Notes under the pieces: generated by a model | Database searches by the model: none | What the model was told of the DNA's origin: nothing | The model's input: the letters and a program-made list of their open reading frames with translations, nothing else | Position numbers and translations under genes: made by a program | Shown: positions 1,379 to 57,626 of the stretch, in pieces | Layout of the letters: every line of letters starts with the position of its first letter | Position numbering within the stretch: position 1 is the stretch's first letter | IMG/VR virus record: IMGVR_UViG_3300023048_000001 | Span: 96,001 to 160,000 of that record | Strand: one strand, 5' to 3' | DNA: 64,000 nucleotides | DNA from: a virus | Taxonomy: Duplodnaviria; Caudoviricetes

Positions 1379-1921
1379 TTAGCGAATCTTGATGACCTTG
1401 ACAATCTCAGTCTTATCACCAATGCTTTCGGCAATATCCATTGCCATTTGCTGAATTTCAGCTTGGATACATTCAGTGGCGTATGATTCAATACCCCACC
1501 GGGATTCTTCAGGGCCTTCAACGGGATTCCCGTTTACATCCAGTAGCTTGACAGTGACACCAACATAGTGCCACTCACTCGCGAGCCAGCCCCGCAAGTG
1601 TTTCATATCTTCATTCACGGCAAGCTCAAGCGCCTTACCCGGATGCATATCCGGCTTCACACCATCTGCTACCCAACCTTGAGCTTTCGCTTTCTTCATA
1701 GCGCCAGCAAAGTCATAGAGCCAGATGTCATAACCATCAACATGGATGACACGCTCACCGGGAGCCTTGAACGAACGGTATCCATTGTTACGTGTGTTCA
1801 CATGGCGAACCGTACCGTGTGCATCCGAACGGTCCCACGGACATTCATTGTCAAGATCAACCTCAATGAAATACTGAAAGCTAAGACCATTGATAGAGAA
1901 GATGGTTTCATGAATGCGCAT
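1379..1921 (-). CDS. hypothetical phage protein (180 aa)
   Basis: ORF with promoter and CACAGGGA SD. Confidence 0.8.
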   Translation of the reverse strand: MRIHETIFSINGLSFQYFIEVDLDNECPWDRSDAHGTVRHVNTRNNGYRSFKAPGERVIHVDGYDIWLYDFAGAMKKAKAQGWVADGVKPDMHPGKALELAVNEDMKHLRGWLASEWHYVGVTVKLLDVNGNPVEGPEESRWGIESYATECIQAEIQQMAMDIAESIGDKTEIVKVIKIR

Positions 1922-3377
1922 GGTGGTTCCCTGTGGTGTGGAAGCATTATAACGTAATTGGTCTAACTGTGCAACACCTTATTCAATATTGGTGCGCAGA
2001 TAGAGCCAGCCACGGGAAGATTCAGCTTCAATGTACCACTTGCGGAAGTCGTCACGCAATGGCTTGGAAATGGCATCACCCAAGCCATTGTCTTCCAACT
2101 CTTTACGATCCCAAAAGCCTACACCATGACCACGGGCAGTCAGGTACAGATCGTGGCCGAATGCCGCTTCAGGGCTTCCAGAGTCAGGATGGGAACCATA
2201 ACCCTCAACCGCCAGCACTTGACGGGAAAGCTTTGGATATGCTTTGACGAATGCTTCAGCATACTTGCGAGCGGACGCCAGAGCCTTTTTGGTAACCTGT
2301 GGGTTCTTATCCTCACAATCGGCCCATACTGCGACAATGCACATATGCTTGGCGATGATGTCGAAGTCGATCATGAGGTTATCTCCCGTGGTGTGGAGCT
2401 ATTATAAAACAAATGGAAAGGGGTTGCAAGGGTTTTGTGTAAAATAAAAGTGCCGGGGGTTATCGTCCGGCGTCCCATTTCGTATTGTCTCATATGGAAG
2501 CGTTATAATGGCAAAGGGTCCGCTACACCCACCGTTCAGCCTAAGTCGTTACTAACCGCTACGGCTGACACGTCCGTAACATAGCGGTCTTCAGGGTTAG
2601 CTCTTACTCGTTGGGCTTGAGGAATTCAGGCCAGAGGAAGGCATGCATTTCGTTTTCCGAATTGAGCAGCCAATTGTGGATGCTATTGGGGATACGGTCG
2701 GATTCGTCACCGATTTCACCCGTGTCAACTGCGCAGTTATACGTTGCGCTGTCACCGTTGGGAGCGTAGACCATGGCGGGAGTACCAGCACCCGGATCGT
2801 CAGGAATGATTTCACTCTTATCGAGTACCAGCTTCCAGCCGTCTTTGGTAAGGGTCTTCACGTTATCGCTCATGGTGTATCTCCTGTGGTGTGATTCCAT
2901 TATACTGGAACCATGGCAGAATGCAATACTTTTGTTGAATAATTAAGGGCTAAAGTATTCTTTGATAACCCTTGACGCTTCAGCAATATTATGGGTTAGC
3001 ATTTCATCAGAGATAGGACCAATCAATTCCCTGATATCTTTCTCATTGTCAAGGGTTATCAACCTATCACCGTAACCACCCATGGCGTCTACCATATTGG
3101 TTCCGTTAATGTCAAATGCCCTGTCATCATCGAGCAATACCCAAGCGTGACCGATGTAGGGATCGATTTCCTCGCACAGTTCTACCACCATTGTCAAGCC
3201 ATAGGCCCGATGCATGGCCAGTGCCAGATACATGCATTTGCCGCACATATAAGCATCGATGATTGACTCAGGTACGGGCTTGATGGCATGCATTAATATC
3301 TACCAGATGTCTTATGTGTGGTTACATTATACACAATCCATTACATAACACAACTCTTTTTTATAATGAAATAGGTG

Positions 3378-3421
3378 TTGACTGATTTCGATTTCTATTA
3401 TAAAATAGGTTGTGGCTGGGA
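3378..3421 (+). promoter_or_regulatory. Repeat A copy 3
   Basis: TTGACT-N17-TAAAAT-AGGTTGTGGCTGGGA. Confidence 0.75.
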
Positions 3422-4900
3422 GACTGTGCATAATGGAACTAAGCACACCACGCAACTACTTTGTTATACAGAAATCGTAATCAGGGTGACGTGCCAAGTA
3501 GTTCTTAAGAAATTCCTTAGCTTCGTCCATGCTGGCAAAATCATGCTGAAACGTTCCCCAACCCCACTGACCGTTTCCCTTGGGTACACGAATCATCAAC
3601 CTGATAGGTGCATGGTCACCAGTGCGAACACGATAGGGTGTATATTCATCTTTACAAGCCAGCATGGCTATGGTATCACCATCAGGCGTCTCGGCGCTGG
3701 GCCATCCTCGCCGTTCGAATGAACGATAACGACCAGTGGGTGCAGACTGGACTTTCCATGCATATTTAATCACGATGGTTCACCAGTTGTTCATTCAGCA
3801 CTGCACACCTTGCATCAGCCTGACGCTTATGTTCGTGCAAGGGTACGGAACCATAGCAGTCCCATGGATATGCTGAATCGACTATGTATGATCCACGGCT
3901 ACCGTATCGAATAACACGGTAGCCAGTAAGGATGCCAGAGATGTACCACGGCAGGACTTCCCACATGTTACACCACCTTGCGCGGATCGCGCGATTCAAT
4001 GATGTCACCCGTGGCGTAGTTCGTGGTGCGGTAATACATGGGACGGCCATCAACCATCTTGATACCGATGGAAGGATTGGCATTCAGGAAATCTTCAATG
4101 ACCATCTTCTGGATAGCAGCCTGACGAGTAGCGGCTTCGGTGTTGAAGACGTTGGGGGCGGTTGCGAGGGTCATTGTGTATCTCCTGTGGTGTGGAATCA
4201 TTATAACGTAATTGACCAGAGCCGTCAACAACTTTATATAAAAAAAGTCCCCTATTCGGGGACTTTGTTGATGAAGACGTGGAGTTCATCGAAGGCCGAT
4301 TCGTACAGTGCAGCCTTACAGTCTTGAGGCGTTCCGGTTTCCAGTGTCGAATCGATCTTACCATTTTCGAAAATGTCAATAGCGGACTTACCGTTACGGA
4401 CAGAGGCGATGTATCGATAACCTACATTCTCACCCTTGGCCTTGTCTAGCACGTTATTGACCATTTCGCAACGAGAGCGCAGACTTTCGTGAGTGAATCG
4501 CATGGTGCTATCTCCGGTGGTTAATTCCATTATACATGAAGCTCAACCATCGTACAAGGGTTAGCTATTCACTCCATAGAGCGCCAGCACGGCCTTCAGA
4601 TGGTGTTTGTTTGCGAATTCCAAGCGCTGAATCAGCATGATTTCTTCCACTGCGGATTCACACTTGACACCGAGATATGCCAGACCGATTGCCTTCAGGC
4701 CATTGTCCAACTGGTCCAGATTCGAACCCGGAATCATCTTAATGAATTCGACCACCATCTTACTGAAACCGTCGAAGTCGGTGGTGATGGTAAGAGCGGC
4801 GAGAGTATCAATGTTATCGGTCATGGTAGTTCCCTGTGGTGTGATTACATTATACACAATCAATCCGGATATGCAACTCTTTTTTATAATGAAATAGGTG

Positions 4901-41614: not shown

Positions 41615-41923
41615 TTATTTATTTAACAAACGATCAATGAATTTATTTGCTAGTAGCTCATGAATCTCTTCATAAGGATGAAAGACAACGGCTACAACCC
41701 AACGCTCATTTAGATTTGTTTTCTTGTTGTAAACTACAGCCTGTATGTAACAGGAATCATGTTTACGATATATGTTATCTACTTCACATGCTTCAAGGAG
41801 GTAATTGTCACTCCAACGCTTAATAAATTCGATTTCAAGAATATCTTCAATCTTTTCCACTGAAATATCAATGGGATCACCATCGACAAAACCGGGTATA
41901 TGCTGTAGTACGCGAATGCTCAT
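41615..41923 (-). CDS. hypothetical protein
   Basis: ORF with AGGA SD. Confidence 0.7.
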   Translation of the reverse strand: MSIRVLQHIPGFVDGDPIDISVEKIEDILEIEFIKRWSDNYLLEACEVDNIYRKHDSCYIQAVVYNKKTNLNERWVVAVVFHPYEEIHELLANKFIDRLLNK

Positions 41924-41948: not shown

Positions 41949-42796
41949 CGGGCTGAGAATAGACCCTGACACGTTGATACTTTAGTTTGGATTATGGCAT
42001 CTTGCGGATGCTTTCCCACTTTTCCACTACAACCATCCTTCCGAATGCATCATAGTATATCAACATAGCAGCCTTATTTAAGTGGTGGCATTTCCACTGT
42101 CACCGTAACCTATTCGGCATGTCCTATTCAGTCTGCCTTGCGAGCAGCAAAGGGTTCGACCCCATCCTTGCAATTCTTTACCAACATTCATCGGCCTTGC
42201 GAGCTTCCGAATGACTCTATTGTCTTACGACTAGAGCATTATGCTATTTTCAGTTACGACCGAATCCGTCTTTGCGTTTTTTCAAGGTTGGATTTGAACC
42301 AACGTATGATCGTTTAAGAGACGATTGCTTATCCACTAAGCTACTAGTTATCCCACTAAGGTCGAGCGGATTCATAGGTCCATACCCTTTTGGGGTACAA
42401 AATTCTATCCGACCTCATCTGCTTCTCACCCGCTAAGGTTACACTCGCAGTTCGTTTCACGACTCTTTCAAGCCATTAACAATGTATAAACGCATTCGTC
42501 CGCTAAGACTCACACCCTCATACTACCAATTCATCATCCACTGGTTCAACGTTAGACCGGCTAGAGGTTTCTATTCCTCTCATCACTCACCGATTGGCCT
42601 GTGATGGTTTTAACCGCATTGAATTCCAATATATCTCCGAAAGCTTCCGAAGCCAGAGCGTTCCACTCTGTGATATGTTGGCTTTTATAAACGAGTCCAT
42701 TTTCATGGTGGGACGCTGGTAGGCGCATTCCCGTTTGACACCTCACGGTATCTTATCTCTCCCTCATAACCCTTTCGAATTATGAGGTACTACACA
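41949..42796 (-). ncRNA. large (~850 nt) structured RNA, GOLLD-like, with nested tRNA-Lys(CTT) module
   Basis: No credible ORF; many hairpins with GCAA tetraloops; long-range pairings to the 3' end; sits in a tRNA region. Confidence 0.65.
42280..42350 (-). tRNA. tRNA-Lys(CTT)-like module lacking a proper acceptor stem, nested in the large RNA
   Basis: D-arm GCTT-AGTGGAT-AAGC, ATCGT-CTCTTAA-ACGAT, T-arm GTTGG-TTCAAAT-CCAAC. Confidence 0.65.
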
Positions 42797-42848
42797 TACG
42801 TTATTCCTTTAACGTTTCGTTCCTCTAAGTGGGAACTCATCAGTGTGT
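42792..42848 (-). ncRNA. hammerhead ribozyme, type I
   Basis: ACACA-CTGATGA-GTTCC..GGAAC-GAAA-CGTTA..TAACG-TA-TGTGT: full core, GUA cleavage triplet. Confidence 0.9.
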
Positions 42849-42903
42849 GACTTGATGTAGAACATATTAAAGTGTTTAACTATTCCTGTCAACACTTAAA
42901 TTG

Positions 42904-43055
42904 GATGTTTCATTCGGGAAGGTGATCAAACCTTCCTAGCTTATCTTCCTAACACTCCTTTGGAGGTTCTAGTCTTTGCTCATATAGAAGATTTTTGAGT
43001 CTACGGTAGCCTGTATCCGCGATATTGATCCGAATGAAACGTTTGCCTTTCGGCC
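42904..43055 (-). ncRNA. candidate ~150-nt structured RNA
   Basis: 11-bp closing stem GTTTCATTCGG/CCGAATGAAAC (3' C shared with the adjacent hairpin); T-arm-like hairpin; own TTGACA promoter. Confidence 0.5.
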
Positions 43056-46406: not shown

Positions 46407-46993
46407 AATTATAGAATATAACTTTTAAAACTTTATGTCAATACTTAGTAAGTAGGACCAGTGTGATGATTGAAAGTCAGCATTGCATCATGGCTCACCG
46501 GCCACAGCGGACAAGCACCTTCATGGCCGAAACCTGCACTACAAAACCAACCCTTGGGATGGTCATGCTTGCATGGACCATTCTTCTCTTCAGCACGATA
46601 GCTCTGAAGATCAGTAAACATCTGTTCCATAATCTTCCATGGCTCGTAGATGTCCTTCAGAAGTGGAAAGCCTTCAGCAGTCTTCTTTGCCCATTCAATG
46701 AACTGGGCAAGCTGTTCGTCAGTGTAATTGAATTTAACTTCAGTCGTCATAACTTTGCTCGGTGTTGGTGAGATTGAATTCTACCGGATTTAAAAGTTAA
46801 ATCCAAGTACTCATGACATAGAGTGGAAATGTTCCAATAAGAAGCAAGACAATACTGATCACAAAGTCAATTACCTCAAAGCCATATCCTTTCTTCCAAC
46901 GTAAGATGGTTATAAACCCACCATAGAAGCCAAATCCAAACAATAGACCAAGCAAGATAGGTATAAAAATGTAACTCATAATATTTCCTAATA

Positions 46994-50736: not shown

Positions 50737-51030
50737 AGATTATGTTACGTATTATACATCTATTTATAACTGTTGTCAAGCATTTAATATTCTCTACCAT
50801 TTTCCACTCTATTGGGTGGTGAGCAATATTGTAATTATTTAGGACGCCATACAAGAGTGATGCACTTATTACCTTGTTCTTTAAGAACTTGCATTTGGTT
50901 CATCGCATCTTGCAATGATTCACCACTCCAAACTTGAGCATTTCCCCAGCCATCGTATCCATCATTACGTTCGATGCCAGTATATTTCCAAACAAGAATT
51001 GTGTATTCTGTGCCCATGTTATCTCTTAAA

Positions 51031-51108
51031 TGGTGGCCAGAGGTGGATTCGACCCACCATCTACCGGTTAAAATACCGGTGATTTTGAACCGCTTAAACT
51101 ATCCGGCC
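51031..51108 (-). tRNA. atypical tRNA with 8-nt anticodon loop (TATTTTAA)
   Basis: GGCCGGA/TCTGGCC acceptor, ACCGG..CCGGT stem, A-CCA. Confidence 0.65.
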
Positions 51109-53847: not shown

Positions 53848-53943
53848 TGATGCTAGGAAGAAGGGATTCGAACCCTTGGTTTGATGTTATCGCACATCCG
53901 CTCTTTAAGGCGGAACACTTTAATCCTCTCGGTCACTTCCCGC
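53848..53943 (-). tRNA. atypical Leu-like class II tRNA (8-nt anticodon loop, bulged acceptor)
   Basis: TCCGC-CTTAAAGA-GCGGA, long V-arm, AAGGG-TTCGAAT-CCCTT; ends A-TCA. Confidence 0.55.
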
Positions 53944-56489: not shown

Positions 56490-57626
56490 TTATTCGGTTT
56501 CTGTTAGTTCGGGATCGTCGCCAATTCCGAACTCCTTATAATGCTTGATCATCCATGTCTTGTAGTCGTTCTCCTTCCCAAGGTAAAGGTTCATCGCAAG
56601 GCTGAAATACAGACGGTCTAGCTCTTTCTGTCCAGCAATCGCATAATCCTTTCTCTCTAGATCACTATTTGAATTATAGAACCCAACAACATACTTGTCA
56701 ATATTGCGATAAATTGCCTTGACCTTGAGTTCCATTTCGTCAATGAGTTTGAGCATATATTCATCATACGAGAAGTTAGCACGGGCATCATCGTGGCCTT
56801 CGTTCACTACCACAATGAAGCGCTTCTTAGGTGAGTTAATATCATCCTTAAGATTGTGTAGTGAACAATACCAGTCAGTCTTGTGCTTCGTTAGAACACC
56901 CTCAACACCAATGATGTAGCCCTCTACTCCCGTCTTTGCTGGAATTGAATCAACAAATGCTGGAACATCATCAACCTTATAGCTCTTTACCAAATAATCA
57001 AGAACAAGTGGATCAAATGAGACCATTGTCATTACGACTTCATTATATGCCAGTACTTTACCATCATCACGATCACGAACATGGAGAACAGTCAGCTTAT
57101 CTTCCTGATAAGGAAGAACAATACGGTGTACCGGCGAAGTCCATTCCAAAGAAACAGAGAATTTAGCCTGTTCCATGTATTCTAAATATTTTAGCAATCT
57201 ATCATTTTCGCCATTGAACAAAAATTCCATGGCAGCATTTGCCTGCTCTGAAGCTAGCGATGTTTTGCTCTTCAGATATGTGTTTCCATGGATCATGTAA
57301 GTGGTCATAATGCTACCATCCATCTTATCCATGACAATATCTGCCTTGGAGAAGTCGATGTCCATAACCAAAGGATTTTCCTTAAAATTAAAGAATTTTC
57401 GGGGTGGCAGGGAAGCCAGACGCTTCATACGTCCATCTTCCATTTCAAACATGATACCACGAGCCTCAAGAGCCGAAGGCTTCAGGAAGTCGCTATAGGA
57501 AGCTAGACGATAGTTGAACACACGGAAGGTAACACCTTCCATCTGATGTTCTACGATATAAAATGGTGAGTCAGGAGCATGAATAAGCTCCATCAACTCA
57601 TCATATAGAGTTGATTCATAATGCAT
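56490..57626 (-). CDS. rnlA: RNA ligase 1 (T4 Rnl1/gp63 family)
   Basis: FNYRLASYSDF, EARGIMFE, KFFN, motif I KMDGS, EGY and KTDWYCSLH; 378 aa. Confidence 0.9.
   Translation of the reverse strand: MHYESTLYDELMELIHAPDSPFYIVEHQMEGVTFRVFNYRLASYSDFLKPSALEARGIMFEMEDGRMKRLASLPPRKFFNFKENPLVMDIDFSKADIVMDKMDGSIMTTYMIHGNTYLKSKTSLASEQANAAMEFLFNGENDRLLKYLEYMEQAKFSVSLEWTSPVHRIVLPYQEDKLTVLHVRDRDDGKVLAYNEVVMTMVSFDPLVLDYLVKSYKVDDVPAFVDSIPAKTGVEGYIIGVEGVLTKHKTDWYCSLHNLKDDINSPKKRFIVVVNEGHDDARANFSYDEYMLKLIDEMELKVKAIYRNIDKYVVGFYNSNSDLERKDYAIAGQKELDRLYFSLAMNLYLGKENDYKTWMIKHYKEFGIGDDPELTETE

Follow-up and report, generated by a model that had tools for sequence, protein, structure and literature searches.

Our analysis indicates that a 64,000-nt stretch of phage DNA (positions 96,001 to 160,000 of the IMG/VR viral record IMGVR_UViG_3300023048_000001, hereafter the window) carries a giant non-coding RNA gene of the GOLLD family that is headed by a hammerhead ribozyme motif. 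We consider it likely that this ribozyme sets the exact 5′ end of the GOLLD RNA and that the 5′ domain of the RNA then closes. Judged by sequence, GOLLD genes that begin with a hammerhead are present in at least 11 phage lineages, the window and ten others, among them the cultured phages X1, BUDD and XacN1. GOLLD RNAs, reportedly discovered by Weinberg et al. in 2009, are among the largest non-coding RNAs of bacteria and phages, and their function and biogenesis are unknown. By cryo-electron microscopy (cryo-EM), GOLLD forms a 14-subunit cage made of RNA only (Kretsch et al., bioRxiv 10.1101/2024.12.08.627333). The preliminary description of this DNA had proposed a unit in which a promoter, a hammerhead and a giant RNA follow one another and in which the ribozyme would provide a precise 5′-OH end; the Rfam match to GOLLD, the recurrence in ten other lineages and covariation all speak for such a unit. 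The record itself is 174.6 kb long, about half complete and rich in tRNA genes, and the window features given below by coordinate all lie on the minus strand.

The RNA that follows the ribozyme is a bona fide GOLLD and not merely GOLLD-like, as it had first been labeled. Rfam model RF02032 matches 41950-42417 over its full length (model positions 1-416 of 416), scoring 201.8 bits where the gathering score is 150 (E = 1.8e-55). This model spans only the conserved 3′ half of GOLLD, and thus the 380 nt after the hammerhead constitute the variable GOLLD 5′ domain (42418-42796, outside the Rfam model) rather than a separate element. Searched with nhmmer, a profile of the 5′ domain recovers homologs at other GOLLD loci, where they precede the 3′ domain. 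With its 5′ end (a 5′-OH at U42796) placed by hammerhead geometry and its 3′ end taken as the end of the Rfam match, the mature RNA is predicted to be 847 nt long (42796-41950). The preliminary description had remarked on some 850 nt free of open reading frames, and the longest reading frame within the region indeed encodes only 61 amino acids. The published layout of the family pairs a conserved 3′ domain with a 5′ domain that is less conserved, the two joined by a variable linker that sometimes holds a tRNA (Kretsch et al., 10.1101/2024.12.08.627333). The window RNA has this two-domain build, with a tRNA-like insert in its linker, and lies in a viral record near tRNA genes.

The hammerhead is a 57-nt type I motif (42848-42792) with an open stem I. 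Stems I (42848-44 with 42796-92), II (42836-32 with 42823-19) and III (42815-10 with 42803-42798) comprise 5, 5 and 6 bp, and the catalytic core is complete, with CUGAUGA (42843-37), GAA(A) (GAA at 42818-16), the A15.1-U16.1 pair and A, not G, at position 17. Hammerhead geometry predicts cleavage after A42797, that is between 42797 and 42796, which is the same motif and the same cut site that had been picked out before. A descriptor scan of both strands found no other such motif in the whole 174.6-kb record, and an equally good one arose in 1 of 300 dinucleotide shuffles of that record. Immediately upstream lies a sigma-70-type promoter (42892-42864), with a -35 element TTGACA (42892-42887), a 17-nt spacer and a -10 element TAATAT (42869-42864), in agreement with the sigma-70 hexamers at 10 of 12 positions. 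Our promoter scan thus recovered the promoter that had been proposed at this place, and it belongs to an enriched family described below. The gap between promoter and hammerhead is 15 nt in the window and 16 nt in XacN1, whose promoter has the identical TTGACA-17-TAATAT arrangement; from spacing alone, we infer a transcription start near 42858-42856.

BLAST identified GOLLD in the Xanthomonas phages X1, BUDD and XacN1 and in Sinorhizobium phage Phosso, and pattern scans of IMG/VR yielded about 190 GOLLD loci, to which we applied a flexible descriptor scanner for hammerheads. Type I hammerheads are present in the window, X1, XacN1 and two of the IMG/VR loci (L042 and L141), in each case at a distance of 555-593 nt upstream of the paired CGCAAG hairpins; the flexible scanner found one more at L179. 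A pattern joining the hammerhead to its conserved 5′ tail returned 21 matches: the known L042, four new GOLLD loci (L311, L314, L318 and L323) and 16 chance matches in coding DNA. At L179 and at these four new loci the hammerhead directly adjoins a homologous GOLLD 5′ domain, and the window's nearest relative (L011/L330) also has a hammerhead once its upstream DNA is included. Rfam confirms GOLLD in X1, XacN1, L042, L141, L314, L318 and L323. Stray hammerhead matches are rare: 1.77 Mb contained four, and 1.04 Mb of viral DNA without GOLLD held none; this negative control consisted of the returns of a CTTAGCGG-repeat pattern that had been aimed at the subclass and yielded non-GOLLD DNA. Type I is the only class represented, as a search for types II and III across 1.8 Mb of GOLLD loci came up empty. 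When the window hammerhead alone served to build a covariance model (R1), the model was too insensitive to be useful: it recovered only a 3′ copy at L042 (E = 1.5e-4) and missed the hammerheads of X1, XacN1, L141 and L179.

A tree of the 3′ domains, from which L179, L311, L314, L318 and L323 were left out, places the window, L011, L042, X1/BUDD and XacN1 in one supported clade (95/85) whose members all have the hammerhead. L141 falls outside it, beside loci that have none, and the ribozyme must therefore have been gained or lost at least twice. A single origin of the hammerhead is not upheld by this placement.

Comparison of 11 hammerheads (ten 5′ copies and the 3′ copy of L042, with the later-added L330 copy read by eye) revealed an invariant core and three covarying stems. 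Every stem position is paired in all of them except for one U-U, and each shows two to five pair types save the invariant A15.1-U16.1. The junction between A9 and stem II is irregular in XacN1 and L179. MAFFT misaligned the copies with long stem III insertions, and only eight compact copies aligned well. In the window, the leader strand AAGU (42850-42853) can pair with ACUU in loop II (42830-42827). Eight of the 11 lineages can form such a pseudoknot (4-6 bp), in register, in differing sequences and at a distance of 0-2 nt from stem I; it probably stabilizes the hammerhead. Fast cleavage by hammerheads requires stems I and II to touch, either loop to loop or through a pseudoknot. In the hammerheads of bacteria and phages, this contact is commonly made by pseudoknots of this kind (Perreault et al. 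2011, PMC3088659).

What ties the ribozyme to the RNA behind it is the position of the cut. The predicted site falls 2-3 nt before a conserved strand of a GOLLD helix, and stem I shares 1-3 nt of that strand. In 10 of the 11 lineages, the stretch +3 to +8, counted from the cut, can pair with +102 to +108, with 4-6 bp in each and six versions of the sequence overall, and this 5′-terminal helix covaries in L042, X1, XacN1, L179, L311, L314, L318, L323 and L330; at L141 we found no clear partner for the +3 to +8 strand. The window strand is UGUAG (+3 to +7, 42794-42790); it has 3 nt in common with the 3′ strand of stem I, and its partner is UUAUA (42690-42686). The 6-mer and, about 100 nt further on, its partner also occur in GOLLDs that lack the hammerhead, but in these the 6-mer lies in the loop of a small hairpin. 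Since stem I and the 5′-terminal helix draw on the same nucleotides, the two pairings are mutually exclusive. This overlap suggests that cleavage most likely defines the mature 5′-OH end and at the same time releases the 6-mer to close the GOLLD 5′ domain.

In the scenario that we envision, a strong sigma-70-type promoter would direct host RNA polymerase to start near 42857, roughly 10 nt ahead of the ribozyme. The first ~60 nt of the transcript would fold as a type I hammerhead stabilized by the pseudoknot, and this ribozyme would fold and cut between A42797 and U42796 before the partner strand around +105 had been transcribed. The 5′ fragment of about 60 nt, with a triphosphate at its start and a 2′,3′-cyclic phosphate at its end, could then drop off the 5-bp stem I, and the 847-nt GOLLD body would keep a 5′-hydroxyl at a fixed nucleotide. 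The freed nucleotides +3 to +7 would pair about 105 nt downstream, and the first helix of the GOLLD 5′ domain would thereby close. The order of folding would accordingly be cleavage first and closure of the cap domain of the nanocage second. The unit has a promoter directly upstream in the window and XacN1 but follows tRNA genes in X1 and L314, with no room for a promoter of the window type. What these settings share is thus an exact 5′ end, regardless of the DNA in front of it. In the cryo-EM structure each half of the cage has a sevenfold cap built of tightly packed 5′ domains (Kretsch et al., 10.1101/2024.12.08.627333), which offers a plausible reason why 5′ extensions could be harmful. Together, these features suggest that an exact and extension-free 5′ end matters for GOLLD folding or assembly.

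Several results weigh against this model. In the window the Rfam hammerhead models stay under their gathering scores; the best of them, Hammerhead_3, reaches 16.9 of the 48.5 bits needed and in the wrong register, and Hammerhead_1, the model to which the preliminary description had pointed, gives no match at its gathering score. RNAfold predicts stems II and III, and its minimum free energy fold is without stem I, which at 5 bp is short. That fold also offers a rival pairing between leader and core, with a z-score of only -0.88. The 5′-terminal helix of the window is weak, with three Watson-Crick and two G-U pairs. When leaders and loops were mismatched as a control, pseudoknot matches of at least 4 bp arose in about a third of the combinations, and because 4-bp matches are this frequent by chance the pseudoknot gains only moderate support. 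Finally, nearly all of the roughly 150 scanned GOLLD loci with enough upstream sequence have no detectable hammerhead, so that GOLLD as a class can do without the ribozyme. The Rfam hammerhead models were trained on other lineages, and their low scores thus weaken database membership and leave the match to the motif unaffected. With these models below threshold and an unremarkable fold lacking stem I, the case for the hammerhead rests on its relatives.

A stronger version of 5′-end definition by the ribozyme is that self-cleavage serves as a licensing step, in which the intact hammerhead blocks the cap-domain helix and cleavage triggers folding and assembly of the nanocage. We regard this version as possible, if speculative. 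If it were true, a ribozyme would control when, or whether, a natural compartment made solely of RNA can form.

An alternative is that the cut matters for its chemistry. Hammerhead cleavage leaves a 5′-OH and a 2′,3′-cyclic phosphate, and the ribozyme could thus replace the 5′-triphosphate of the GOLLD transcript by a 5′-OH that evades decay of the RppH/RNase E type or feeds a pathway of end healing and ligation, the latter an idea already raised for this phage. The phage does encode RNA ligases. A 378-amino-acid protein similar to T4 Rnl1 is encoded in the window (56490-57626; PF09511, 54 bits, plus the T4_Rnl1_C domain; found by Pfam and missed by the whole-genome family search), and a gene of the Rnl2 family lies outside it (G000:C1:166454-166999). 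Ligases of the Rnl2 family are also present in X1, XacN1, L179 and L042. At the L042 locus, a second type I hammerhead (3336-3389, plus strand) begins one base after the 3′ end of its GOLLD (2888-3335) and would supply both ends for ligation; its Rnl2-family gene is nearby, starting at 4069 two genes downstream. An RNA flanked by hammerheads in this way might be excised and circularized. The association of ligases with the hammerhead class proved nonspecific, however, and was rejected: 3 of 5 GOLLD jumbo phages without a hammerhead have them as well, and RtcB, the ligase that joins such ends directly, was absent from all six records searched. Moreover, the 3′ hammerhead occurs in only 1 of 11 lineages, with none at the 3′ end of the window GOLLD, and end chemistry by itself leaves unexplained why the cut is placed 2-3 nt before a covarying helix. 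We therefore consider it unlikely that end chemistry accounts for the ribozyme, and the ligase pathway has gained no specific support. Separately, a short similar element (around UUGAAACAUUG) occurs on both sides of the GOLLD-hammerhead unit of L042.

We judge it quite improbable that the hammerhead is merely a separator that frees GOLLD from upstream tRNAs or read-through transcripts and has no part in folding. Processing of long phage transcripts has been proposed as a role for phage hammerheads (Perreault et al., PMC3088659), and several arrangements would suit it: the ribozyme comes right after a tRNA in L314 and 66 nt after one in X1, tandem hammerheads lie between a tRNA and GOLLD in L311, and in the window no terminator lies between the GOLLD promoter and the RNA gene upstream of it. 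Yet the window and XacN1 have a promoter 15-16 nt before stem I, which leaves little or nothing to separate, and in all lineages stem I shares part of its 3′ strand with a conserved helix of GOLLD, which ties the ribozyme to the fold of the RNA. A separating role also overlaps with 5′-end definition rather than contradicting it. That the motif is inactive, whether by chance or as a relic, and that initiation or a host RNase sets the 5′ end could be argued from the missing Rfam hammerhead match at threshold, the unremarkable z-score and the irregular junctions of XacN1 and L179, but is barely credible given an invariant core and three covarying stems at the same position relative to GOLLD in 11 lineages and a genome-wide chance rate of about 1 in 300. 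Altogether, we favor the model in which the hammerhead sets the 5′ end of GOLLD by a cleavage that is presumed to occur in vivo.

The L311 locus deserves separate mention. Its two tandem type I hammerheads (1432-1508 and 1635-1686, plus strand), situated between a tRNA gene and GOLLD, would release an RNA of about 175 nt with both ends made by ribozymes. Among the GOLLDs without a hammerhead, L075, L077, L127, L133, L153, L169 and L178 share a leader around AAGAUUUAAGGG just before the hairpin that holds the 6-mer; this leader may represent a -10 region together with a transcription start, or else some other processing signal. The RNA-gene region around GOLLD also contains a permuted, two-piece transfer-messenger RNA (tmRNA) gene in XacN1 (L002:984-1403) and on the L042 contig (L042:10134-10572).

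Within the GOLLD body of the window, the linker carries a tRNA-like module (42350-42279) that scores 47.5 bits with the Rfam tRNA model and draws no call from ARAGORN. Its D, anticodon (CUU) and T arms are intact, and its acceptor stem is mismatched, with acceptor positions left unpaired. Similar inserts are present in the linkers of Phosso, L314 and L323, and tRNAs in GOLLD linkers have been described previously (Kretsch et al., bioRxiv 10.1101/2024.12.08.627333). Together with the ligase similar to Rnl1, the module might point to a link with defense by anticodon nucleases.

We also examined the hairpins and long-range pairings that had been proposed for this RNA, the latter on 39 distinct GOLLD 3′ domains. 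All three C-GCAA-G loops that had been reported are present (42201-42196, 42142-37 and 42006-01), and two of them are conserved GOLLD hairpins. The three long-range pairings fared differently. The GUUGAUAU/GUAUCAAC pairing corresponds to an Rfam helix and covaries at 7 of its 8 pairs. For GAAUAGGUU/GGUCUAUUC, complementarity is conserved over GAAUA/UAUUC only, with four invariant pairs and no covariation, and possibly represents the loop L27 contacts of Kretsch et al. (10.1101/2024.12.08.627333); the GGUU/GGUC extension of this pairing was rejected, as it clashes with Rfam helices. The GGCUG/CAGCC pairing was rejected as well, being paired in 52% of the sequences and in conflict with a covarying terminal hairpin.

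Perfect TTGACA-N17-TANNNT sites number 18 in the window where 1.05 would be expected, an over-representation of about 17-fold that none of 100 shuffles reached, and 14 of the 18 sites are on the minus strand; further examples lie at 50751-50779, 46413-46441 and 56673-56701. This excess suggests a region driven by host polymerase with many small RNA genes. One of these (42902-43051) lies directly upstream of the GOLLD promoter, has a TTGACA promoter of its own (43092-43065) and is followed by no minus-strand terminator before the GOLLD unit. Downstream, our terminator scan of the window found no terminator after the 3′ end of GOLLD. A 102-amino-acid reading frame (41615-41923) begins 27 nt past that end, with a Pfam match below threshold only and a single weak, uninformative relative in a search anchored on its protein, and is followed by a tRNA-Glu gene (41610-41534); both are probably co-transcribed with GOLLD. 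The window has 12 tRNA matches by Rfam and 10 tRNA genes by ARAGORN. Two odd ARAGORN tRNAs (51031-51108 and 53852-53942), of which one has an anticodon call of 2 nt and the other of 4 nt (UAAA), could be decoys or resemble frameshift suppressors.

The preliminary description did not recognize the pairing of a hammerhead with a giant RNA as described, and a full-text literature search, whose coverage did not extend to the 2009 discovery paper and a 2014 thesis, found no paper that links GOLLD with hammerhead or other self-cleaving ribozymes. The cryo-EM paper (10.1101/2024.12.08.627333) and the 2011 survey of hammerheads (PMC3088659) do not mention such a pairing. If correct, our predictions would amount to the first concrete statement on GOLLD maturation, specifying where the mature RNA starts and which chemistry its end would have. 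They would also give natural hammerheads a defined job, the maturation of the 5′ end of a structured RNA directly behind a promoter. Because X1, BUDD and XacN1 are cultured Xanthomonas phages with the same arrangement, the idea is directly testable.

The window RNA shares with other members of GOLLD (RF02032) the full-length match to the 3′ domain, the CGCAAG hairpins, a variable but homologous 5′ domain, a tRNA-like linker insert and a place in a tRNA-rich phage region. The published descriptions that were consulted mention no 5′ ribozyme (Kretsch et al., 10.1101/2024.12.08.627333), whereas the window belongs to a subclass with a hammerhead. What is the loop of a hairpin around the 6-mer in other GOLLDs would in this subclass be a free 5′ end made by the ribozyme. 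The hammerhead likewise resembles the type I hammerheads of bacteria and phages (Perreault et al. 2011, PMC3088659; clan CL00010) in its core, three-way junction, open stem I and phage setting, and its predicted pseudoknot, like theirs, could hold stems I and II parallel. It differs in that this pseudoknot would use the 5′ leader instead of the loop of stem I, and in scoring below the Rfam thresholds. Known phage hammerheads border protein genes or lie close to integrases, whereas that of the window stands after a promoter and in front of a giant non-coding RNA and, unlike them, shares nucleotides with the first long-range helix of its cargo.

Self-cleaving ribozymes similar to that of hepatitis delta virus (HDV-like), termed theta, were reportedly found next to tRNAs in gut phages by Kienbeck et al. 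in 2024. They offer a close parallel, in that a small self-cleaving ribozyme reportedly matures a non-coding RNA in a tRNA-rich phage region, but they reportedly belong to another ribozyme class and act on the trailers of tRNAs, so that their cargo is a tRNA and not GOLLD. In engineered transcripts, a hammerhead placed 5′ of an RNA yields a defined 5′-OH end whatever the start site. The window appears to follow the same logic, with the difference that its arrangement is natural and conserved and that its stem I is built from functional nucleotides of the cargo. Both parts are thus of known kinds, and what is new is their conserved fusion and its tie to the GOLLD fold.

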